Shown piece by piece: positions 38,044-64,000 of a stretch of DNA of 64,000 nt. The notes under the pieces were generated by a model that did no database searches, had not been told where the DNA came from, and worked only from the letters and a program-made list of their open reading frames with translations. Source of the stretch: Escherichia phage vB_EcoM_ASO1A; sequence record MZ726791.1; one strand, written 5' to 3'. Made by a program: the position numbers and the translations under genes. Position 1 is the stretch's first letter. Every line of letters starts with the position of its first letter.

Positions 38044-38559
38044 TCAACTTAGTTTTGCAAACTCTCCGTGGAGTTTAATAGCAGCTTCACAGTAAGCTTT
38101 ATGGGCTTCTTCTTCTGTTGTGTACGTCCCTATATGTATAGTCTTACCATTATGGTTAATCTGGGCTATCCACTTACCAGACTTGCTTCTACTTGTACCT
38201 TTTAAGTTTTTTGATGTTCTGGGTTGTCTCCTATTAGACATGTTCTGCTCTTTTGTGGCCTCTCTTAGATTGTCCCAAGCGTTATTCAAACCATCCCCAT
38301 CTTTGTGGTCAATGTGTTTATCAGGCCACTTACCTGTCATCCAGAACCAAGCAATTCGGTGATTACCTGTCCTGTATCCTAAAATCTGTGTGTGCATATA
38401 CACACCAGACCTTGTGCGCTTAATTGCTCCGGCTTGGCTTCCAATGACCACCCTACTACTATGTGGAGGTCTGCCAATCCATGTTAAGACCCCTGTTTCG
38501 GGGTCATAATCTAACCAAGACTTTAACTGTTCATGTGTGAATCCACAATCTCTCATCAA
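38044..38559 (-). CDS. HNH homing endonuclease with AP2-like DNA-binding domain
   Basis: HIDHKDGDGLNNAWDNLR (HNH) and YDPETGVLTW N-terminal motif shared with two paralogs; abuts the DNA polymerase gene. Confidence 0.75.
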   Translation of the reverse strand: MMRDCGFTHEQLKSWLDYDPETGVLTWIGRPPHSSRVVIGSQAGAIKRTRSGVYMHTQILGYRTGNHRIAWFWMTGKWPDKHIDHKDGDGLNNAWDNLREATKEQNMSNRRQPRTSKNLKGTSRSKSGKWIAQINHNGKTIHIGTYTTEEEAHKAYCEAAIKLHGEFAKLS

Positions 38560-41255
38560 TGTACCTCATACCAGCTTTTACCAACCTTACCAGTACCAGT
38601 TACCAGTGTTTCACTCTTTAGTCCTAAGTTCTTAGAGGCTTGCCCGTAATACCAATCAGTGACAGCCTTCACCTCTGCCGTCATACTTTCTGGACATTCC
38701 CAACTCGTCTCATCGTGATAGGAGCACAATAAACGAGCACCTATAGCTGGTTTGCGACCGTTCAACTTCATCAAACCTTCGTCAATCATACGACGGCAAG
38801 CAAGGTTAATTGCCTCGTTCTGAATCTGACTTTCCGAACCCATAAGCAAATAATTCAACAACTTATGTGGAGATTTACACCACAACCAAGCTCCAGCAAC
38901 CTTTACAAAACCCCCTTTAGAGATTGCAGCAGTCTTACCAAACACCTCTTCAAGTGCCTTTTTAGTTGCTTTGTAGTCAGCTTCCAAGTCATCTAGCAGC
39001 TTCTTAATTTTAGGCAAACGAATAAAGTAAGTCTGTTTAGTCAGTGCACCTTCCTGAGTAGTTGCAGCTTTAATCGTCTTAGCAAACTTCTCATCACCTG
39101 CACCGAACAGCAGTGCATAGATACCATTCTTAGCTTTCTTACGGCCTTTGCTAATCTCATGGAGAAGGTTCTCATCCTGAGTAGCTCGACAAGTCAAGAT
39201 ATCCTGCTCATCATTCAAGCTAAAGTAAATACTGTTCAATGTATGTGCATCAGTCCCTGAATAGACAACGTACAGGTCATTCTCAGAGTCATAGCGAAGG
39301 TACTTATCAATCTCTGGGTTCAGGTACTCATCAAAATGTTTGCAGTAATAGCGTCCATCTTCTTGACGAATGAACTCAATTTCTTCTTTACCTTGCGTTA
39401 CCGCTTTGGTGAAGTCTTTATCACCCATAAAGTTACAAAGAAGAACTAGCTGGGCTGAGTTCATATCTACAGAGACAACGTTAGTACCTTCCTCACAAAT
39501 CCATACTGCCCTCATTGGTTCTCCATAGACAGCAGCACCAGACGGTACGTTTACAATACCATACTGTGTCATACGTCCAGTTGAAGTACCAAACACCATT
39601 GCACCAGCACTAAGGCGACCATCAGGACGAATCTGGTTAAGCCAACCTTTTTCATCATCCTTTGAGTTCTCAATAGTTCTGCGTCGGTGCATCAAAGTAT
39701 AGTACTTAGCAATCTTCTGTCCAAGCTCACCTTCAATCGTATCATAAGATGATTCAGTAAGTTTTGGTGAAGTACGGATTAAGCAAGGTTCAAGCAAATC
39801 TGTGTATTTCTTCACAGACCAGTTATGCTCGATGTACTGTACACCTTCATGTTCAACATAACTCAAACCACACCGCTCAACCATTTCCTGCCACTTAGGA
39901 TGCTTTGTAATCATCTTTTTATTGTCTTTGAAACGACAAACTTTGACAGGGCGACCGTCTGAGTCTTTCTTGTAGTTCCAGTCATCTGGAATCCAACCAA
40001 CTGATTTCAAGTAGTCTTTTACAACTGCTACCTGAGTCATACGAGAAACTTCAAACTCAATTGGTGTATATGGTGCATCAATCAATCCTGTGTAGCGACT
40101 TGACTCAAGTTCAAAGTGGTTAACAACGTGGCTGTTATAGTACTTCACAGTTTTGACTGTTTTTACTGGCTTCCAGTCTTTGCATTTCTTACCAATCTTT
40201 GCATTCAACTCATTGCAAATTGCACGAGCATCCTTCATTGCTACAAAACCTTCCTTGTACTCTTCACCAGTTACAGAGTTGGTTGGTGTGTAGCAATTTC
40301 TCTTTTCAATGTTAAAAATCTTTGTAGTTGGCTTACCAAACGGTTTGATTTCGTATGTCTGCATCTCACCGTTACGTACCTGTTGACGATACTTTGTCTT
40401 AGGGTACTTGGTAATTCTCTTCAGTCCATCTGCATGACCGAACGCTTCAACATACTCATTCCAAGCTTTTGCAAACTCTTCTCCAGTGACTTTACCTTTG
40501 GTCTTAATAGTTGGAGGAAGATGTGGTTCAACCTCTGAAGCAAGCTCATTAGTCAACTTGTCAAGTTCCTTTACATGGAACTCCATAAGCTCTTTATCAG
40601 CTTTCCAACCATTGATAGCTTGTTGACTCATCCAGAAAGATGTTTCTTTAGCTCGCATGTAGGTTTCATAAGTGTCTATGCCACACTTCTTAAGCTTGAG
40701 ATACTCATTATCAAGTGCCCGTTTAGTTTTGGCGTTAATACGGATATCTTCTACAACACGAGTGAAGATTTCTGCATTCCACACACCCCAATGTTCAATC
40801 TCTGGTTTACGAACACCAACACGAGCACCCCATGCAGCCAAGCCATGAGCACCTTTATAACCCTTTGGAGTTGGTCTATCCATCCACTGAACACGAGACT
40901 GGATAAGAGAATCCTGAAAGAAATTACTCCACGGCTTACACTTTGGATTATCAAAGTTCCATAAATCCGGTGCAATGTGATTGAAAACCCACCAGTCATA
41001 ACCTAGACCATTATGAATGCAAAGACGTTTTGCCTTTAACGCAAACTCAATACCTTCACGTAAGCCACCCTTAATGTACTTGGTATACTTGTGACCGAGG
41101 ATAGGCTCATCTGTAAAGACCCATACAGGTGGCTCTTCATCGTCAGATTTATAGTCTGCGAAAGCCATTACGTGCACTTTAGTGAACTCAAGGAGTAAAC
41201 CATCAGTTTCTGTATCACCAACTAAATGTAAGTTTTTAAAATCTACGTTTTCCAT
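38556..41255 (-). CDS. DNA polymerase, family A (Pol I-like) with 3'-5' exonuclease domain
   Basis: Exo I motif DTETDGL near N-terminus; ~900 aa; start set to Met11 with AGGGAG SD. Confidence 0.85.
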   Translation of the reverse strand: MENVDFKNLHLVGDTETDGLLLEFTKVHVMAFADYKSDDEEPPVWVFTDEPILGHKYTKYIKGGLREGIEFALKAKRLCIHNGLGYDWWVFNHIAPDLWNFDNPKCKPWSNFFQDSLIQSRVQWMDRPTPKGYKGAHGLAAWGARVGVRKPEIEHWGVWNAEIFTRVVEDIRINAKTKRALDNEYLKLKKCGIDTYETYMRAKETSFWMSQQAINGWKADKELMEFHVKELDKLTNELASEVEPHLPPTIKTKGKVTGEEFAKAWNEYVEAFGHADGLKRITKYPKTKYRQQVRNGEMQTYEIKPFGKPTTKIFNIEKRNCYTPTNSVTGEEYKEGFVAMKDARAICNELNAKIGKKCKDWKPVKTVKTVKYYNSHVVNHFELESSRYTGLIDAPYTPIEFEVSRMTQVAVVKDYLKSVGWIPDDWNYKKDSDGRPVKVCRFKDNKKMITKHPKWQEMVERCGLSYVEHEGVQYIEHNWSVKKYTDLLEPCLIRTSPKLTESSYDTIEGELGQKIAKYYTLMHRRRTIENSKDDEKGWLNQIRPDGRLSAGAMVFGTSTGRMTQYGIVNVPSGAAVYGEPMRAVWICEEGTNVVSVDMNSAQLVLLCNFMGDKDFTKAVTQGKEEIEFIRQEDGRYYCKHFDEYLNPEIDKYLRYDSENDLYVVYSGTDAHTLNSIYFSLNDEQDILTCRATQDENLLHEISKGRKKAKNGIYALLFGAGDEKFAKTIKAATTQEGALTKQTYFIRLPKIKKLLDDLEADYKATKKALEEVFGKTAAISKGGFVKVAGAWLWCKSPHKLLNYLLMGSESQIQNEAINLACRRMIDEGLMKLNGRKPAIGARLLCSYHDETSWECPESMTAEVKAVTDWYYGQASKNLGLKSETLVTGTGKVGKSWYEVH

Positions 41256-47123: not shown

Positions 47124-48170
47124 ATGGAGAAGTACACATTAACAAAACTTCCCGATTCAGTTACACATGTTTTTATTGACTCTGACAGTATTGCCTACAA
47201 AGGTGCTTGTGTAGTTGAGAAAGCAAAATATAAATATGTCAATAAACTCACAGCAGAAGAATCTGAGCCATTTGATAATGCGAAAGATGCTGCAAGATGG
47301 TTAGCAGACCAGAGAATCCTTGTGGAAGAACTTGGCCTGACATTTGATGAAGATGAATGGGAAAGACAGACTTGGAAAGAAGCTAAGAGTGAAAAAGAAG
47401 CTATCATGGCTACTCAACAGGTGCTTCAGGAATGGCTTAAGGTTGTTGGGAAAGAAAGAACTTGGGTAGGTTATTTAACAGAGAAAGGTGTACATAAACA
47501 TAAAGACATTAAAGGTCTTGAGCACCAATATCAAGGTAACCGTAAAGATGCTGTCACACCAACACACTTAGTTGCTTGTCGTGAGTATCTTCTGTCAAGA
47601 CCAGAGTTCAAATTGATTCTTGATGGATTTGAAGCTGACTCTATCGTTATTGCTAAAGCTGAAAAGATGGGAAAAAAGGCTGCCTTGATGAGTATTGATA
47701 AAGACCTTCGCCAAGCTGAAGGGACTTACTGCATTGATATGACCTATGAAAAGTCGCCTTTGATTTTTATTGCTGATAACAACGTTGGTGAAATTTGGGA
47801 TTGTCCAATAAAATCGACACCAAAAGCTAAGAAGGCAGTTGGGGTAGGTTTTAAATTTCTTTGTTACCAAGCTGTGGCTGGTGATAATGCTGATAATTAT
47901 TTTGGTTTAAAGGGCGTTGGTAAGGCTACTGTAATGAAAGCCCTTGAAGGTAAAACTACTTATAAAGAGTGTCTTGATGCTATCTATGAACTTTATGCTA
48001 AGAAAGAGTCCTATACTTATGTCTCGTGGGATGGTCAAACAATTACCAGAACACCTTTAGAGTTAATGCAGCAACACTTTTTCTTAGCTTATCAGGAAAG
48101 AAACAAGAAAGACGATTTCACTTTTGATAAGTATGGGTGGACACCAAATGTTAACTCAACAAACTCTTAA
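47124..48170 (+). CDS. 5'-3' exonuclease / flap endonuclease
   Basis: FEADSIVIAKAEK region and helix-hairpin-helix-like FGLKGVGKATVMKAL. Confidence 0.65.
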   Translation: MEKYTLTKLPDSVTHVFIDSDSIAYKGACVVEKAKYKYVNKLTAEESEPFDNAKDAARWLADQRILVEELGLTFDEDEWERQTWKEAKSEKEAIMATQQVLQEWLKVVGKERTWVGYLTEKGVHKHKDIKGLEHQYQGNRKDAVTPTHLVACREYLLSRPEFKLILDGFEADSIVIAKAEKMGKKAALMSIDKDLRQAEGTYCIDMTYEKSPLIFIADNNVGEIWDCPIKSTPKAKKAVGVGFKFLCYQAVAGDNADNYFGLKGVGKATVMKALEGKTTYKECLDAIYELYAKKESYTYVSWDGQTITRTPLELMQQHFFLAYQERNKKDDFTFDKYGWTPNVNSTNS

Positions 48171-48648
48171 AGAATACCTGCACTATGACCCCGAAACAGG
48201 GGTCTTTACTTGGTTAGTTGGTAGAAAAGGTAAGGCCAAAGCTGGCTCAGTAGCAGGTCTTAAACATCATAGTGGTTATATCTATATAAAACTCTTCGGA
48301 AAAAGATATGCAGCACACAGACTGGCATTCTTGTATATGAAAGGATACCTCCCAAAATTTGTTGACCACAAAAATGGTATCAGGCACGACAACTGGTTCG
48401 ACAATTTGAGAGAGTGTAGCAGGTCAGACAACAACTGCAATGCAGTCAAAAGAAAAGATAATAAGTCTGGTGTGAAGGGTGTATATTACCACAAGCAAAG
48501 AGGTAGATGGGCTGCACAAGTCAAGCATAATAAAGTATGCTACCATCTAGGTTTATTTGACTCTATCACTGAGGCTGAATCAGTTGTCAAAAAGAAAAGA
48601 GAAGAACTCCATAGAGAGTTTACAAATCACGGAGAAGCTCATGAATGA
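48148..48648 (+). CDS. HNH homing endonuclease with AP2-like domain (paralog 2)
   Basis: YDPETGVFTW motif; VDHKNGIRHDNWFDNLRECSRSDN; track start TTG at 48124 moved to in-frame ATG. Confidence 0.7.
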   Translation: MLTQQTLKEYLHYDPETGVFTWLVGRKGKAKAGSVAGLKHHSGYIYIKLFGKRYAAHRLAFLYMKGYLPKFVDHKNGIRHDNWFDNLRECSRSDNNCNAVKRKDNKSGVKGVYYHKQRGRWAAQVKHNKVCYHLGLFDSITEAESVVKKKREELHREFTNHGEAHE

Positions 48649-54928: not shown

Positions 54929-57073
54929 ATGAACAAAGTACAGATTATTAAAAAGAATGGCTCACTTGAAGAACCTGATATCAAAAAAGTTTTAGCAGCA
55001 GTCACAAAGTCAGCTAACAGAGTTGGTTATAAAGAGCTTCCACCAGATGTTACTCAAGCTCTTGAGTCAGCATTTATGAGGATTCTGGTAAAGTCCACTA
55101 AGCAGAATAATTTGCTAATTTCGGTAAATGATATTCACAGTATTGTTGAGGGTGCTTTGGCAGAAGTCAATCACGAGATTTATGAGTCTTACTCAACATA
55201 TAGAAATTACCGTAAAGAGGTTGCTCAAAATTGGGATGAACTCTACCAGAAGACTAAAGATACACTCTTCTTAGGTGACCGAGAAAACGCTAATTTTGAC
55301 AGCAGTTTAATTTCTACAAAAGGTTCAATTATTCGTGGTTATCTGACTAAAGAAATCTTTAAACAGTACCATTTAACACCAGAGGAACTTGAAGCCATTG
55401 AAAAAGGGTTTATCTACATCCATGATTTAAGAGACCTAATTTTTGGTGGTATCAACTGTTGCCTGTTTGACATTGGTAAAGTCCTGAAAGGTGGCTTTGA
55501 AATGTCTGGCATCGAATATTGTGAACCGAAGTCTGTACTGTCAGCCTTACAGGTTATTGGTGATGTAGTTCTTTCAGCAACTGCACAGCAATTTGGTGGC
55601 TTTACTTTAGCAGAGATTGATAAGGTACTTGTACCGTATGCTAAGAAGTCTCTACACTATCATGCTGAGAAAGCAGCATCTTATGGTATTCCTAAAGAAC
55701 ATTACCACAATTATGTCATGGAGCAGCTACAGATTGAACTGACTCAGGGTTTCCAGTCACTTGAAATGAAACTAAACACTGTACCTTGTAGTCGTGGGGA
55801 TTTTGCATTCACAACTTTGACATTCGGGTTACTTGACTCAGATATGTCCAATGAAGATAACCGACTGCAATACATGATTGCAAGTACTCTCCTAGATGTT
55901 CGTATGAATGGACAAGGTAAGAGCAAGAAGCCTGTTGTATTCCCTAAACTGGTTTATATTTATGACCAGAAGAGACACGATGAGAATATCTGTCAAGGCC
56001 ACCTGTACAGTAAAGCTATTGAGTGTTGCTCTAAAGCAATGTATCCAGACTTCTTAAGTGTATCTGGTCATGGTGCTGTAGCAGAGGCTTTTGAGCGTTC
56101 TGGTAAGGTTATTTCACCAATGGGTTGCAGAGCTTTCTTGTCTCCATATCTTAATGAGGATGGGGAAGAGTTCTACGTTGGTCGTGCTAACATTGGTGCT
56201 GTATCTTTGAACTTACCAATGATTTACCAGTATTCTAAAGAGAATGGATTAGACTTCTGGACAGAACTTGATAAATATCTCGAAATGATTCGTAGCTTCC
56301 ATAAGAAACGCTACGAAATGATTGCTAATATGCCAGCAAGTTCTAACCCTCTTGCATTCACACAAGGTGGTCTGTACAAAGGAACTAAGAAACCTACTGA
56401 CAAGGTTGGTTGGGATATTGTGAAGTCCTTCACAGCTTCTTTTGGTGTTACTGCGCTTGATGAGTTGTCTGTTCTTGCTGAAGGTAAACGACTTCATGAA
56501 GTTGGAAGCTATAGTTTTGCATATGATGTTCTGGCATACATCAACATGAAAACCGAAGAGTTTAAAAATGAAGATGGCTTCTTATATGCCGTCTATGGTA
56601 CTCCAGCAGAATCACTATGTGGGACTCAGCTAAAACAGTTCAGAGATATGTTTGGGGTTATCAAAGGTGTTTCCGATAAGGAATACTTTACAAACAGTTT
56701 CCATATGAATGTTGCAGCAGACATCTCGCCATTTGAGAAGCAGGACTTAGAAGAGCCATTCTTCCATATCTGTAGAGGCGGTAGAATCCAGTATGTAAGA
56801 GTAGCTAACCCAGAAAACTTAACAGCACTTAAAAGTTGTATTACAAGAGGGATGTTGAAAGGTTTCTATCAGGGGCTTAACTTTGACTTAGCAATCTGTG
56901 AACATTGTGGTAACAGACCAAAGGCTGATGTTGAAGAATGTGAGGTTTGCCATTCACATGATATCTCTGTGATTAACAGGGTGTGTGGGTATCTTGGATG
57001 GACTAAGATTAAAGGTGAATCCCGAATGAACGATGCAAAAATCGCTGAGATTCGTGATAGAGTCTCTATGTAA
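54929..57073 (+). CDS. nrdD: anaerobic ribonucleoside-triphosphate reductase (class III)
   Basis: 714 aa; C-terminal zinc ribbon CEHCG ... CEVCHSH and glycyl-radical region RVCGYLG. Confidence 0.85.
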   Translation: MNKVQIIKKNGSLEEPDIKKVLAAVTKSANRVGYKELPPDVTQALESAFMRILVKSTKQNNLLISVNDIHSIVEGALAEVNHEIYESYSTYRNYRKEVAQNWDELYQKTKDTLFLGDRENANFDSSLISTKGSIIRGYLTKEIFKQYHLTPEELEAIEKGFIYIHDLRDLIFGGINCCLFDIGKVLKGGFEMSGIEYCEPKSVLSALQVIGDVVLSATAQQFGGFTLAEIDKVLVPYAKKSLHYHAEKAASYGIPKEHYHNYVMEQLQIELTQGFQSLEMKLNTVPCSRGDFAFTTLTFGLLDSDMSNEDNRLQYMIASTLLDVRMNGQGKSKKPVVFPKLVYIYDQKRHDENICQGHLYSKAIECCSKAMYPDFLSVSGHGAVAEAFERSGKVISPMGCRAFLSPYLNEDGEEFYVGRANIGAVSLNLPMIYQYSKENGLDFWTELDKYLEMIRSFHKKRYEMIANMPASSNPLAFTQGGLYKGTKKPTDKVGWDIVKSFTASFGVTALDELSVLAEGKRLHEVGSYSFAYDVLAYINMKTEEFKNEDGFLYAVYGTPAESLCGTQLKQFRDMFGVIKGVSDKEYFTNSFHMNVAADISPFEKQDLEEPFFHICRGGRIQYVRVANPENLTALKSCITRGMLKGFYQGLNFDLAICEHCGNRPKADVEECEVCHSHDISVINRVCGYLGWTKIKGESRMNDAKIAEIRDRVSM

Positions 57074-59000: not shown

Positions 59001-59321
59001 ATGAGCAAAGTTTATAACACTCGCAAATTACAGATTTTCGTACTGTGCCAGTTTATGGCTAAAGAATATAACTTCTACTATTGCGGCACAGGTTTTATTA
59101 GCGACGATGATGGTTCATACCTACCATTTAAAGAAGCTGTGAAGCTCTTTAATGAAGAGAAAAGCTCTAAGAAAGATATTGAAAAGGTTAAGCTAACCTA
59201 CAGCAAGAAAGATAAGAAGATTATCTGCCTAGATAACTTTGTGAAAGTTACTGGAGAAGCAAAAGAGTTTATGGATGAGAGTGAGATTTCATTCACAAGC
59301 ATCTTGAAAGTAGCTCAGTAA
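59001..59321 (+). CDS. hypothetical protein
   Basis: 106 aa; terminator hairpin downstream (GGGAAC ... GTTCCC + T-run, about 59335-59368). Confidence 0.45.
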   Translation: MSKVYNTRKLQIFVLCQFMAKEYNFYYCGTGFISDDDGSYLPFKEAVKLFNEEKSSKKDIEKVKLTYSKKDKKIICLDNFVKVTGEAKEFMDESEISFTSILKVAQ

Positions 59322-59371
59322 ACAGATACTATAAGGGAACTGTAAAGGTTCCCTTTTATTTTGGAGATGAT

Positions 59372-59887
59372 ATGTATCTGTCAAACCTAAAACGTTCTGC
59401 TGCAATGTCAGTTCTAAGACTCAGCTTTGATGAGCGTCAAGAGTTTATAGACTCCCACAAATATGACCCTTCAAATTCTAATCACATGGTTCTTTGGAAT
59501 CGTGATAACTTCCGTGAAAGAGCACTTGTCCGTTATTACCCACACTACACAATAGATAACCTGTATGAATGGTGTGTTGTGAAGAACACCATTGCAACAC
59601 TGAACAATCTTTGCAGGTATACGGGTAAGCAAACATTTACATTAGGTCATCACAAACCTGTTACAAAAGGTGGTGAACATCACTGTGCAAACTGGTTTAT
59701 CCAAACTAAAACTGATAACCAGAAGCAAGGAGATAGCCTCCTAAGTATCCCCAAGATGACCTATGAAGAGCAAGAGAAATATATCAAAAATAATATGCCA
59801 GATGTGCTTGACAACAACTATACAGATTTGGCAATATCTCTCCTGTTGAAGTTCGAGACAGTTTATAGGGCAACTTATAATGGCTAA
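59372..59887 (+). CDS. HNH-motif protein (putative nuclease)
   Basis: GHHKPVTKGGEHHCANWF...DN resembles HNH core; GGAGATGA SD. Confidence 0.4.
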   Translation: MYLSNLKRSAAMSVLRLSFDERQEFIDSHKYDPSNSNHMVLWNRDNFRERALVRYYPHYTIDNLYEWCVVKNTIATLNNLCRYTGKQTFTLGHHKPVTKGGEHHCANWFIQTKTDNQKQGDSLLSIPKMTYEEQEKYIKNNMPDVLDNNYTDLAISLLLKFETVYRATYNG

Positions 59888-60158
59888 AGAAAAGTGGGAG
59901 ATTTTACCATTAGTCAGTGAAGGAGGTAATGGTTGTGAAATGTACATGATACGTGGTCATGTTCCAGAGCCAATTGCACTTGAGATGGTAAACAACTTTA
60001 CAGATGGTTCTTACAAAGACTTAGGCGAACCAACTGTCAAGCAACAATGGGTAAAGCCTGTACCAGACAGCACAGGTAACTGTAGTGTACTTTACCACGT
60101 TGTAGACCCTGTAAAATGCAAATCTGCAATGGCAGTAACAAACGTAACTTTTGATTGA
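59880..60158 (+). CDS. hypothetical protein
   Basis: 92 aa. Confidence 0.4.
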   Translation: MAKEKWEILPLVSEGGNGCEMYMIRGHVPEPIALEMVNNFTDGSYKDLGEPTVKQQWVKPVPDSTGNCSVLYHVVDPVKCKSAMAVTNVTFD

Positions 60159-60169
60159 GAGAGAAAACT

Positions 60170-61051
60170 ATGAAAACATCTATCCGTGTCACAATTCATT
60201 CACCGACTAAAGGAACTCATGAAGAAGAGTTTAACATCATCCAATTCCCTTCTGGTGAGATTGGTGGCCACTTTTCACAAGAGCTTGTTGATTTTACTGC
60301 TTATGCAGCATCATCTATTAACAATGTGGTTATGATTGTAAAGGGTTATGACAAAGACACACTGTTTGCTGTGGCACTGGCTAAAGAAGCAATTGACGAT
60401 TTAGTTCCTCATGATTATGCCCTGAAGACTGTCATTTTTTACTACTTGCCAAATGCACGATACGACCGTCACATGTTTAAAGGCGACGCAGCAGCTTTAA
60501 AGGTTTTTGCTAAACAGGTAAATGCAATGGGATTTGGTGCAGTCTGTGCAGTTGACCCTCACAGTTACGTTCCAGATAACCTGTTTAACTGCTTCCAGAG
60601 TATTCCTCAAAAGGAGATTGCAGTCCACTATGCAAATGACCCACTGGTTGATTACTTAGTAGCCCCAGATGCAGGTGCTGCTAAGAAGGTTGCAGAGACC
60701 GCTAAAGAGGTGGGTAAACCATATATCACAATGTCTAAAGTACGCAACCTTAAGACTGGTGAAATTACTGGTATGCGAATCCTTGATGATGTTGATTTGA
60801 CAGATAAAACCGTCATGATTCTGGATGATATCTGTGATGGTGGTCGAACCTTCATAGAAGCAGCGAAACATCTTCGTGAAGCAGGTGCAAAACGTGTGGA
60901 ACTTTATGTAACACATGGTATCTTCTCTAAAGATGTTGAAAACCTTCTTGACAATGGTATCGACCATATTTACACTACAAACTCTTTAGGTGAAGCTAAA
61001 GACCGTGGCTTAACACATTATAGTCAAGTTACTGTAGCAAATTTGGATTAG
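60170..61051 (+). CDS. ribose-phosphate pyrophosphokinase (PRPP synthetase)-family protein; possible ADPR-pyrophosphate synthetase
   Basis: PRPP-binding loop TVMILDDICDGGRTF; track start TTG at 60155 moved to ATG after GAGAGAGAAA. Confidence 0.7.
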   Translation: MKTSIRVTIHSPTKGTHEEEFNIIQFPSGEIGGHFSQELVDFTAYAASSINNVVMIVKGYDKDTLFAVALAKEAIDDLVPHDYALKTVIFYYLPNARYDRHMFKGDAAALKVFAKQVNAMGFGAVCAVDPHSYVPDNLFNCFQSIPQKEIAVHYANDPLVDYLVAPDAGAAKKVAETAKEVGKPYITMSKVRNLKTGEITGMRILDDVDLTDKTVMILDDICDGGRTFIEAAKHLREAGAKRVELYVTHGIFSKDVENLLDNGIDHIYTTNSLGEAKDRGLTHYSQVTVANLD

Positions 61052-61059
61052 GTATTAAA

Positions 61060-61551
61060 ATGGATAAGGGTTACTTCGAAAAATACCTAATATACGAACC
61101 AGAGACAGGTTTACTAATTTGGAAAGTAACCCTTTGCAATACCGCTATTGCTGGTAACGTTGCTGGCACAAGGTCTAAGAAGGGTTATATCCAAGTTCAG
61201 ATAAATAAGAAAAGGTACTATGCGCATAATATCGCATGGATTCTATCTGGAGGTGATATACCAAGTGGATATGAGATAGACCACATAGACCTTGACAAAA
61301 CAAATAATAGGCTGGAAAACTTAAGACTGAGTACAAAGTCACAAAACCAAAGGAATAGAGGTCTACAAAAGAACAATAAAACTGGCGTGAAGGGCGTAAG
61401 TGTGTGTCCACAGACAGGTCTTTATAAGGCAAGGGTGATGCTTTATCATAAAGAATACTTTTGCGGAAGATTTAAAACGCTAGAAGAAGCTAAAGAAGCT
61501 GTAATTAGAAAACGAATAGAACTTCATGGTAAGTTTGCAAGACATAACTAA
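61060..61551 (+). CDS. HNH homing endonuclease with AP2-like domain (paralog 3)
   Basis: YEPETGLLIW, HIDLDKTNNRLENLR; inserted between the PRPP-synthetase-like and NAMPT-like genes. Confidence 0.7.
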   Translation: MDKGYFEKYLIYEPETGLLIWKVTLCNTAIAGNVAGTRSKKGYIQVQINKKRYYAHNIAWILSGGDIPSGYEIDHIDLDKTNNRLENLRLSTKSQNQRNRGLQKNNKTGVKGVSVCPQTGLYKARVMLYHKEYFCGRFKTLEEAKEAVIRKRIELHGKFARHN

Positions 61552-61568
61552 TAGAGAGAGACATTAAT

Positions 61569-63350
61569 ATGAGTAAATCACTTTACGCAGTACCAGCAGG
61601 TCTTAATGCAGATGCTTACAAGTCATCACATATATATCAGTATCCAGATGCTACACAGTATCTTATGCTGAACCTGACACCACGTAGCGACAAATGGTTT
61701 AACAGCCCCTTAGCAATTGACGGTGTAGTAGCTTTTGGTATTCAACGTTTTGTTAAAGATTACTTGATAGACCACTGGAATGCCACTTTCTTTGAACGTG
61801 ATAAAAAAGAAGCAATTGACGAAATCTTAGAAGTCATGAATGGTGTTCTGGGTAAAGATGCTATAGGTCGAGAGCATTGGGAAGCACTTCACGACTTAGG
61901 CTATCTACCAGTTGAAGTATACGCTGTAGAAGAAGGCACAGTTGTCCCTATGCGTGTTCCGATGATTGTTTTCCAGAACACTGTTTCAGGTTTCCATTGG
62001 GTAGCAGGTTATCTGGAAGATGCTTTCTCTGCTGAGATTTGGAAGGCTTGTACCATTGCAACTATTGCATTGCACTACAAACGTATCTGTAAGAAGTGGG
62101 CTGACCTTACTTGTGACAACGACTTGCATTTACCTTATCAGTGCCATGACTTTGCTATGCGTGGTATGTCCGGCTTTACTGATGACGCATTTAACGCTGT
62201 AGGCCACTTAACCAGCTTTAAAGGAACTGATAGCTTTCCTGCTGTGTATACGGCTAAACGAATCTATGGACAGTCCTACCCAATCTCTGATATTGGTAGC
62301 TCTGTACCAGCCACTGAGCACTCTGTAATGTGTGCAAACATTGCTTGGGAAGGTGGTAATGAGTTGATTGAAGAAGAAAGACGCTTTAAAGGTGAGTTAC
62401 AAACCTTCCGTCGTTTCTTAACAGAAACTTACCCAACGGGTATTGCAAGTATTGTTTCAGATACTTATAACTTCTGGAGAACTGTGTCAGTTATATTACC
62501 AGAACTTCGTAAAGAGATTATGGAACGTGATGGTAAACTGGTAATTCGTCCTGACTCTGGAGACCCTGTACATATTGTCACAGGATACAAAGCAATCCAT
62601 TTAGAGTGTGCTAAAAAGGCTTATTACGAACACCTAAGTAAGCTGGAAGCCAGCGACACAATGTTGAATGCTGTTCTGAACATGAAGCTTGAAAACATCA
62701 ATTATGGTATTGCTGGATGGCTACTGTCAGAAGGCTACGAAATGGTTGTTGACAGAGAAGACTTTGAAGTTGCTGATACAGTGCTGTTGAAAAACGCTTA
62801 TATGGTTGGTTCTGCAAACGTTGTAACACGTCCTGTAGCTGAGATTGATGGAGCTATTAAGACACTGTACAACATCTTTGGAGGAACTATTAACTCTAAA
62901 GGTTTTAAGGTACTGGATGAGCACATTGGCCTTATCTATGGCGACTCTATCACGCTGGAACGTGCAAACGAAATCCTGAAGCGTCTGTATGAAATGGGTT
63001 TTGCAAGCTCTAACGTAGTGTTTGGCGTAGGCTCTTACACTTACCAGTACATGACTCGTGACACCTTTGCATTTGCTGTTAAAGCAACTCTTGCAAGCAT
63101 TGGTGGTAAAGAGATTATGCTTGCAAAAGACCCTAAAACAGATAGTGGTGTTAAGAAGTCTGCTTTTGGTGGTGTAGCACCTATGTGGGATGGTGATAAG
63201 TTGAAAGCTGTAGATGGCTATGGATTCCAGAGCTTTGCAGATGTACTTGAACATCCAGCTTGTGCTTTACGTTTAGTCTTTAGCGACTCTGAGCAGTTCG
63301 GTTACACAACGCTTGGTGATATTCGAAATAATATTGACAAGCAGCTTTAA
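61569..63350 (+). CDS. nicotinamide phosphoribosyltransferase (NAMPT/NadV)-family protein
   Basis: 593 aa; call rests on overall family resemblance (not a single motif) and on adjacency to the PRPP-synthetase-like gene. Confidence 0.7.
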   Translation: MSKSLYAVPAGLNADAYKSSHIYQYPDATQYLMLNLTPRSDKWFNSPLAIDGVVAFGIQRFVKDYLIDHWNATFFERDKKEAIDEILEVMNGVLGKDAIGREHWEALHDLGYLPVEVYAVEEGTVVPMRVPMIVFQNTVSGFHWVAGYLEDAFSAEIWKACTIATIALHYKRICKKWADLTCDNDLHLPYQCHDFAMRGMSGFTDDAFNAVGHLTSFKGTDSFPAVYTAKRIYGQSYPISDIGSSVPATEHSVMCANIAWEGGNELIEEERRFKGELQTFRRFLTETYPTGIASIVSDTYNFWRTVSVILPELRKEIMERDGKLVIRPDSGDPVHIVTGYKAIHLECAKKAYYEHLSKLEASDTMLNAVLNMKLENINYGIAGWLLSEGYEMVVDREDFEVADTVLLKNAYMVGSANVVTRPVAEIDGAIKTLYNIFGGTINSKGFKVLDEHIGLIYGDSITLERANEILKRLYEMGFASSNVVFGVGSYTYQYMTRDTFAFAVKATLASIGGKEIMLAKDPKTDSGVKKSAFGGVAPMWDGDKLKAVDGYGFQSFADVLEHPACALRLVFSDSEQFGYTTLGDIRNNIDKQL

Positions 63351-63359
63351 AAGTATATG

Positions 63360-63392
63360 ATAAGAGGCTCCTACGGGAGCCTTTTTAATTTC
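63360..63392 (+). terminator. rho-independent terminator (GGCTCC-TAC-GGGAGCC + T-run)
   Basis: Read directly. Confidence 0.65.
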
Positions 63393-63403
63393 TGGAGAAA
63401 ACT

Positions 63404-63739
63404 ATGAAAATCAAAGAAATGAACATCAACATTGTCTTAGAAGAACGTTGGGAGAACATCAAGAAGACTGAAGATGGTCATAAGTTCCTCAACAAAATTT
63501 TAGTAGCAGCTAAAGAAGAACTGACTGGAAAGGTTGCAGCAGCAATCACAATAAAGGTTTGTGTAAAAGGTCTTCCACAACATCACCAGTTTGCGCTTGA
63601 CGAGTTTAAAAAAAGCTTCTACAATCCAAACAAACAGATGCTTGAAAGTAACTTTGCAGTATCTACAAGTATCGTTCATGACAGAAGCTTTATCCTTTAC
63701 AAAAACATGAGAGGTGAGTCATGCAAGCATATTGGATAG
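63404..63739 (+). CDS. hypothetical protein
   Basis: 111 aa, GGAGAAAA SD. Confidence 0.5.
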   Translation: MKIKEMNINIVLEERWENIKKTEDGHKFLNKILVAAKEELTGKVAAAITIKVCVKGLPQHHQFALDEFKKSFYNPNKQMLESNFAVSTSIVHDRSFILYKNMRGESCKHIG

Positions 63740-63897
63740 AAATTTTACTGTCACTTGGTAGTGTAGCAATATTTGTTTGCCTTCTTTGTAAGTACTTTGC
63801 AGAACACAAAAAGTGTGACTACTGTAACGGAGAAGGGTATACAAGAGCAGGTTGTTGCCCTATTTGTGGTGGTTCTGGTAAAATGTTTAATAAGTAA
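63721..63897 (+). CDS. small membrane-anchored double zinc-finger peptide (about 58 aa, not in ORF track)
   Basis: N-terminal hydrophobic helix then CDYCNGEG and CPICGGSG (DnaJ-type CxxCxGxG repeats). Confidence 0.35.
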   Translation: MQAYWIEILLSLGSVAIFVCLLCKYFAEHKKCDYCNGEGYTRAGCCPICGGSGKMFNK

Positions 63898-63925
63898 TTT
63901 AACAGTAAACTAAGAGGAAAGTATT

Positions 63926-64000
63926 ATGCGCATGGTAAATGACCACGCAGAAGTGATTAAGAGTTCAACTTCTTTAGAGACGTCTCAAGCACAGATTACA
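63926..64000 (+). CDS. hypothetical protein, N-terminal fragment (runs off window end)
   Basis: ATG after AAGAGGAAAG SD; open to end of window. Confidence 0.35.
   Translation, partial: MRMVNDHAEVIKSSTSLETSQAQIT

Follow-up and report, generated by a model that had tools for sequence, protein, structure and literature searches.

A 64,000-nucleotide (nt) stretch of the genome of Escherichia phage vB_EcoM_ASO1A (MZ726791.1), called the window throughout, was analyzed at positions 60170-63350, where three co-oriented and tightly packed open reading frames (ORFs) lie on the plus strand: a Prs-family gene, an HNH gene and a NAMPT-family gene. The initial annotation of this DNA had described adjacent, co-oriented Prs-family and NAMPT-family genes with an endonuclease gene between them, and the ORFs were confirmed at the positions listed here. 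It had further interpreted them as a candidate ADP-ribose (ADPR)-based pair for the reconstitution of nicotinamide adenine dinucleotide (NAD+), split by a homing endonuclease.

60170-61051, plus strand: adps, ADP-ribose pyrophosphate synthetase (Adps; Prs family), 293 amino acids (aa), assigned from profile matches, orthology and Table S1 of Osterman et al. (bioRxiv 10.1101/2024.02.11.579819)

61060-61551, plus strand: putative free-standing HNH homing endonuclease gene, 163 aa, with HNH_3 at residues 53-98 and an AP2-like C-terminal region at residues 108-157

61569-63350, plus strand: namat, nicotinamide ADP-ribose transferase (Namat; NAMPT family), 593 aa, assigned from profiles, orthology, a structure model and Table S2 of Osterman et al.

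The start of adps was taken as the ATG at 60170, which is the start in the deposited annotation and in phage Bas63; a longer form starting from a TTG at 60155 is possible.

Altogether, the observations suggested, with a probability that we put at about 90%, that this locus is the NAD+ reconstitution pathway 1 (NARP1) operon of a Felix O1-like coliphage, with a selfish HNH gene between the two enzymes. The ADPR-based interpretation was supported by identity to phage ASO1B, orthology with Bas63, the clamp residues of Namat and the lack of a nicotinamide mononucleotide (NMN) adenylyltransferase (NMNAT). NARP1 comprises two reactions without an earlier description, defeats NAD+-depleting defences (SIR2-HerA/Nezha, type I Thoeris, DSR2 and others) and occurs in about 4% of sequenced phages. 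It is already published, was discovered in this genus and is catalogued for this very sequence, and the window holds no new system. What is new here consists of side observations only, namely an inserted subdomain in Namat and two divergent N-terminal forms of Adps.

Positions 59300-64000 are 100% identical to Escherichia phage vB_EcoM_ASO1B (MZ726792, Ounavirinae, Felixounavirus), and both enzymes of that record were listed by Osterman et al., with printed sequences equal to those of the window. MZ726792_00147 appears in their Table S1 as a Namat-associated Adps homolog, and MZ726792_00149 in their Table S2 as an "Adps-associated" Namat. One gene and 518 bp separate the adps stop from the namat start, a distance within the ten-gene Namat criterion of the same authors. 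The closest experimentally studied relative is the NARP1 of Bas63 (bas63_0079 and bas63_0080), a phage of the same genus in which nrdD, nrdG, small ORFs, adps, namat, small ORFs and rIIA follow in the same order. Namat and its Bas63 counterpart, both of 593 aa and both with the inserted subdomain, are identical at 579 positions (98%). Adps has the same length and keeps all motifs, but its identity is only 77% over the whole protein (226 of 293 residues) and falls to 65.8% in the N-terminal half. Bas63 differs further in carrying a 45-bp hairpin spacer instead of the HNH gene, and in the first 45 namat codons, where 18.5% of the nucleotides differ.

NARP1 was found by deleting genes 79-80 of Bas63 (JohannRWettstein, Felixounavirus). 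The deletion led to sensitivity to SIR2-HerA, whereas wild-type infection partly restored NAD+, and ADPR-pyrophosphate (ADPR-PP) was a new metabolite in Bas63-infected cells. In work with proteins of the Bacillus phage SPbetaL1, purified Adps pyrophosphorylated ADP-ribose, and Namat coupled ADPR-PP and nicotinamide to give NAD+; this Namat favours ADPR-PP over phosphoribosyl pyrophosphate (PRPP) and, given both donors, formed NAD+ only. Counter-defence was reported for Bas63 against SIR2-HerA, for FADO against DSR2, and for SPbetaL1 NARP1 against type I Thoeris and others (all from bioRxiv 10.1101/2024.02.11.579819).

Applied to the window, the scheme would begin with a host NADase of the SIR2, TIR or SEFIR type that cuts NAD+ into ADP-ribose and nicotinamide. 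Adps (60170-61051) would then place pyrophosphate from adenosine triphosphate (ATP) onto the free ribose of ADP-ribose, yielding ADPR-PP, and Namat (61569-63350) would allow nicotinamide to displace the pyrophosphate, so that NAD+ forms directly and neither NMN as an intermediate nor an NMNAT is required. The HNH gene (61060-61551) would have no part in this chemistry and would represent a mobile cassette in place of the 45-bp spacer.

Adps matched the profiles Pribosyltran (2e-11), Pribosyl_synth (5e-10), TIGR01251 (2e-36) and phrog_619 (5e-97). The PRPP-binding loop MILDDICDGGRTF, quoted in the initial annotation, was found at residues 218-228 as the ribose-phosphate loop LDDICDGGRTF. The remaining key residues were checked in an alignment with the Adps of Bas63, SPbetaL1 and a Pseudomonas phage and with E. 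coli Prs, in which the FxxGE flag region (FPSGE, 26-30), RxDR (RYDR, 97-100), the DPHS histidine (129-132), the DD...G.T loop and the catalytic loop (SKVRN, 189-193) are all conserved. The catalytic lysine of this last loop, K190, corresponds to K162 of SPbetaL1 Adps (GHKQRN) and to K197 of B. subtilis Prs, and the arginine is kept too; mutation of K162 abolished the activity of SPbetaL1 Adps (Osterman et al., bioRxiv 10.1101/2024.02.11.579819).

These observations contradict the earlier claim that the Prs-like protein appears to lack the canonical flexible loop, since the loop aligns with that of E. coli Prs without a gap and retains both catalytic residues. The argument built on that claim, that a missing ATP loop favours a non-canonical substrate, falls with it: because Adps uses ATP as its pyrophosphate donor, loss of an ATP-binding element is not expected and provides no argument for ADPR as the substrate. 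Likewise, conserved Prs catalytic residues, which had been named among the combined signs of plain salvage, are not discriminating because characterized Adps proteins keep them as well. The sequence of the loop, SKVRNLKTGEI, differs from the DKRRPRANVSQ of bacterial class I enzymes and resembles those of other Adps proteins and of archaeal Prs, and archaeal Prs were also the best PDB matches of the window Adps. By profile, the protein is no canonical class I Prs: only the broad subfamily model TIGR01251 passed (125.5 against a cut-off of 113), and the Prs equivalog models all fell far under their cut-offs (e.g., NF002320, 91 against 297). In phmmer comparisons, the window Adps scored 508 bits against the Bas63 protein, 134 against the Pseudomonas-phage Adps and 88.5 against SPbetaL1 Adps, compared with 47.9 against E. 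coli Prs. This ranking, combined with the identity to the entry in Table S1, places the protein, as judged from its sequence, in the phage Adps clade rather than among cellular Prs.

Namat matched NAPRTase (1.8e-34), NAMPT_N (1.3e-5), NF006629 (1.6e-140) and phrog_448 (1.7e-201). The catalytic core of SPbetaL1 Namat consists of a histidine and R306, and its substrate is held by a clamp helix (SCH) with F392 and Y396, which are glycine and lysine in human NAMPT, and by a clamp loop (SCL) with R40, which in Bas63-type proteins is a lysine followed by the stacking (fourth) residue (PMC12774641). In the window protein the core is intact, with H251 (ATEHS, 248-252) and R327 (RPDSGD, 327-332), the latter equivalent to SPbetaL1 R306 and human R311 and both invariant in the alignment. 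Its clamp helix reads GSYTYQY (488-494), with Y490 and Y494 at the F392 and Y396 positions, and its clamp loop reads TPRSDKW (37-43), in which K42-W43 form the Bas63-type loop. Both the aromatic pair and the stacking residue are in place, and Namat is predicted to carry the clamp that selects ADPR-PP.

An AlphaFold2 model of Namat, built from a 28-sequence alignment, reached a predicted local distance difference test score (pLDDT) of 91.7 and a predicted template modelling score (pTM) of 0.90. A structure-prediction comparison had been suggested as a check on the NAMPT-like protein, and it came out in favour of the ADPR-based pathway, with the Namat crystal structures 9w5x and 9w5w (TM 0.95 on target) ranking above HdNadV and human NAMPT, which are genuine Nampt enzymes.

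Overall, SPbetaL1 (Adps WIT26982.1; Namat 9W5W and 9W5X; PMC12774641) has the same two-enzyme architecture as the window, and the catalytic lysine of Adps, the catalytic histidine and arginine of Namat and the clamp helix GS[FY]TYQY are conserved. Identity is, however, only 31% for Adps and about 38% for Namat, the clamp loop of the window has K-W and not the stacking arginine, and SPbetaL1 Namat is without both insertions of the window protein (residues ~258-272 and ~342-427).

The statement that no NMNAT is visible in the window was confirmed by a motif screen and by phmmer, and the wider NMNAT/Nudix search that had been recommended likewise returned none in the annotation of the ASO1B genome. 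The H/TxGH, ISSTxxR and Nudix-box signatures gave 0 matches in 326 six-frame segments, and in phmmer searches of every ORF of the window and ASO1B the best match to E. coli NadD or NadR had an E value of 1.2, although very divergent NMNATs could escape such screens. As a positive control, a Prs query retrieved adps at 5e-14. Taken in concert with the delta-pncC delta-nadR result for Bas63, this absence leaves little room for PRPP and NMN as the main route. It also separates the locus from NARP2, which is defined by a phage NMNAT with or without a Nudix domain. In the NARP2 of Vibrio phage KVP40 (Nampt NadV and the Nudix-NMNAT NatV), NAD+ is also restored by a NAMPT-family enzyme, but that enzyme uses PRPP and needs the phage NMNAT, whereas the Namat of the window belongs to the Adps-associated clade.

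The best surviving alternative is ordinary nicotinamide salvage, in which the Prs-like protein would make PRPP from ribose-5-phosphate, the NAMPT-like protein would make NMN, and host NadR or PncC-NadD would complete NAD+. The generic family models do name a ribose-phosphate diphosphokinase and a nicotinate/nicotinamide phosphoribosyltransferase, as do the deposited annotations; the Prs catalytic motifs are all kept, and SPbetaL1 Namat yields NMN from PRPP if ADPR-PP is absent. Nevertheless, we consider this route improbable: the SPbetaL1 homologs work on ADPR and ADPR-PP, the aromatic selectivity clamp seen in the window Namat is missing from bona fide Nampt, the window Adps is closer by score to Adps proteins than to E. 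coli Prs, and a phage NMNAT was not found by either screen.

Some points do weigh against the assignment to NARP1. That the Adps and Namat of the window act like their homologs is inferred, with the enzymology coming from SPbetaL1 and the counter-defence from Bas63. SPbetaL1 Namat can form NMN from PRPP in vitro, and some classical activity is possible in the window protein as well. In the literature, the residues by which Adps selects ADP-ribose over ribose-5-phosphate were not found defined, and no structural paper on Adps was found. Additionally, the experimentally tested Adps of Bas63 has the opposite N-terminal form from that of the window (65.8% aa identity), and function in this half of the protein therefore rests on conserved motifs and clade membership. 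Finally, that adps, the HNH gene and namat most likely share one transcript is judged from gene spacing and consensus scans only.

With NARP1 as the preferred assignment of the two flanking genes, the gene between them was compared with the corresponding junction in other phages. Two further features came out of this comparison.

61042-61552, plus strand: HNH cassette, delimited by a four-way alignment with its junctions; present in the window and in Felix O1, replaced by the 45-bp spacer in Bas63 and HY02

61569-61703, plus strand: namat codons 1-45, a candidate co-conversion tract and/or endonuclease target-site region, from its divergence from HNH-minus alleles and its match to Felix O1

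The middle gene matched HNH_3 at 8.7e-20 over 46 of 46 profile positions, indicating an intact HNH domain, and phrog_99 at 3e-68. Of the earlier label "HNH-AP2 endonuclease", the HNH part held, while the AP2 part stayed below the Pfam threshold (E 0.0041; 17.8 bits against 33.3), though nearly the whole profile was spanned (positions 1-53 of 54, at residues 108-157). A search by sequence for a relative of solved structure returned noise only. In the phage collection, adps was present in 234 records and the HNH segment in 61, as a single copy in each, and the segment directly abuts adps in all 11 records with both positions listed. The protein is identical to p237 of Salmonella phage Felix O1 at 163 of 163 residues, and the three-gene arrangement of that phage (Felix01p236, p237 and p239, annotated as prs, HNH and nadV) is identical as well. 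In Bas63 and HY02, adps and namat are separated by the 45-bp spacer only. In about one quarter of Felix O1-like phage records, the putative homing endonuclease sits at the adps-namat junction and leaves the operon undisrupted.

The identity profile around the cassette is mosaic. At its left end, the cassette (~61042-61552) rewrites the last three adps codons (VANLD, compared with VATID or VANLD variants), and at its right end the GAGAGAGA stretch, the ribosome-binding segment ahead of the namat ATG, is retained in the four-way alignment. Compared with Felix O1 at the nucleotide level, a stretch of about 1 kb with the HNH gene in its middle is 96-100% identical, whereas the 5' half of adps is only 66-78% identical, and for this reason the cassette and its flanks appear to differ in history from the remaining adps. 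Namat codons 1-45 show the 18.5% divergence from both HY02 and Bas63, against 4.0-4.6% over the remaining gene, but only 3.0% from Felix O1; relative to HNH-minus phages, 11 synonymous and 6 non-synonymous codon changes were counted. Across 253 records the namat 5' allele fell into two classes, with 99 records at >=90% identity and 154 below. The HNH-plus phages listed are all in the >=90% class, and a number of HNH-minus phages, SPJ41 among them, fall there too. The link between the HNH gene and this allele is one-directional, and a strict association in both directions was tested and rejected.

These features resemble the free-standing HNH endonucleases of T4-like and Felix O1-like phages (e.g., the T4 mob genes) in the intergenic insertion between conserved genes, the fixed-site presence/absence polymorphism, the divergent flanks and the genomic paralogs, with homing here read from sequence alone. 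Felix O1 itself was reported to carry six homing endonucleases (PMC4837284). On these grounds we regard the HNH gene as a putative free-standing homing endonuclease with co-conversion or target-site divergence in its flank, and not as a component of the pathway. In this manner, mosaicism associated with a cassette is documented in an anti-defence locus.

Whether the insertion has uncoupled or crippled the operon, leaving the enzyme pair as a decaying remnant in this phage, needs to be considered, as a foreign gene of 0.5 kb now separates two genes with just 45 bp between them in Bas63 and HY02, and has altered the end of adps. We judge this very unlikely. At 293 and 593 aa, neither enzyme ORF is shortened relative to those of HNH-minus phages, all catalytic residues are intact, the GAGAGAGA stretch is kept, and no strong internal terminator was seen within adps-HNH-namat in a consensus scan. 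Moreover, the arrangement persists in the 61 records mentioned, Felix O1 included, and Namat remains 97-98% identical between HNH-plus and HNH-minus phages.

A functional third pathway component in the middle position has precedents in the Macro-domain phosphatase Adpp of NARP1-AP (Adps-phosphatase-Namat in Vibrio phage Gary, an order seen in ~15% of NARP1 phages) and in the RyR-domain glycosidase RyDEP within the NARP1 operon of phage DyoEdafos, but it is the least credible of the alternatives here, given that the middle protein is an HNH_3 nuclease with an AP2-like tail, has two paralogs beside unrelated genes elsewhere in the window, and is missing from three in four operons that are otherwise almost identical, among them that of Bas63, whose NARP1 works. 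Pfam searches at E<=10, covering the middle gene and the ORFs at 59001, 59372, 59880 and 63404, found no Macro or RyR domain, using HMMER where the published screen used the more sensitive HHpred.

Some additional observations concern the HNH gene and its insertion site. The spacer of Bas63 and HY02, which the cassette replaces in the window, contains a conserved hairpin, GGGGC-TTRAAA-GCCCC, followed by ATTTTG (-11.5 kcal/mol, z -2.4); its possible roles include attenuation, RNA stabilization and service as part of the site that the endonuclease targets. Salmonella phage SPJ41 (ON868915), which is HNH-minus and has a 45-nt spacer, carries a namat 5' allele of the HNH-plus type (94.7% identical); either a precise loss of the cassette or an allele that resists cleavage would fit this. 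The two HNH paralogs in the window lie at 48088-48645 on the plus strand (phmmer 2e-28), beside exodeoxyribonuclease and GIY-YIG genes, and at 38047-38565 on the minus strand (phmmer 1e-20), beside a DNA polymerase gene.

For the enzymes, the first of the side observations is the presence of at least two forms of Adps. They differ in the N-terminal half (60170-60700), where the window protein is 65.8-66.4% identical at the aa level to those of Bas63 and Felix O1 but 96.6% identical to that of HY02. The Namat adjoining either form stays 97-98% identical throughout. The second concerns the coding region of a subdomain in Namat.

62592-62849, plus strand: region of namat encoding a lineage-specific inserted subdomain (residues ~342-427), just after the catalytic RPDSGD strand

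Namat has two insertions relative to SPbetaL1 Namat and to bacterial forms of ~496 aa, at residues ~258-272 and ~342-427. The larger one, of about 85 residues, is present in all Ounavirinae-like phage homologs of ~582-610 aa, down to 45% identity. In the full AlphaFold2 model it is predicted as a compact alpha/beta unit (pLDDT 92-96), and the isolated subdomain is predicted to fold alone (pLDDT 86.9, pTM 0.76). No recognizable structural relative of it was found, and other phage lineages have unrelated insertions in the same Namat loop. An intein was considered for this segment and rejected, as it is too short and has neither the Cys/Ser start nor the His-Asn end. The term "insertion" is absent from the text of the Namat structure paper (PMC12774641), and the Ounavirinae subdomain is a pointer to something beyond the reach of the structural work on SPbetaL1. 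A more speculative proposal, which we hold as rather doubtful, is that Felix O1-type NARP1 is not a plain copy of the SPbetaL1 system: the subdomain might regulate Namat, dock Adps so that labile ADPR-PP is channelled, or widen the substrate range, while the HNH gene, by homing into the operon, might shuffle the divergent N-terminal forms of Adps among phages.

The surroundings of the three genes include two further ORFs and a terminator-like hairpin on either side.

59333-59355, plus strand: terminator-like hairpin from the consensus scan, a 9-bp stem with a T-run that closes the upstream unit, and the likely 5' boundary of the transcription unit with adps and namat

59372-59887, plus strand: ORF, function not assigned, 171 aa, matching phrog_3500 (8e-93) and, weakly, the HNH-like phrog_2214 (2e-6); ortholog of bas63_0077

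59880-60158, plus strand: ORF, function not assigned, 92 aa, matching phrog_4726 (6e-60), directly upstream of adps; ortholog of bas63_0078

63362-63385, plus strand: terminator-like hairpin with a 10-bp stem and a T-run, 12 nt past the namat stop, and the likely 3' end of the unit

By the consensus scan, five genes (two small ORFs, adps, the HNH gene and namat) form a unit between the hairpins at 59333-59355 and 63362-63385, in which the gaps around the HNH gene measure 8 and 17 nt. The upstream hairpin is an annotated rho-independent terminator in the identical stretch of the ASO1B record. Both small ORFs, phrog_3500 and phrog_4726, are conserved in the Felixounaviruses examined and lie within the same terminator-bounded unit as adps and namat; the 92-aa ORF (59880-60158) gave zero Pfam matches at E<=10.

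At a larger scale, 197 phage records span at least 80% of 59300-64000. By BLAST, the window is 98.9% identical to MZ726792 over positions 1-25000 and 97.4% identical over 25001-50000, the latter in 7 alignment pieces with indels. The window represents a distinct mosaic relative of ASO1B, and all three proteins encoded at 60170-63350 are nonetheless identical to those of ASO1B. Within the same 10-kb neighbourhood, nrdD (54929-57073) is an uninterrupted ORF of 714 aa in the window, whereas in Bas63 it is annotated as two pieces split by the endonuclease bas63_0068, a second presence/absence polymorphism of an endonuclease.

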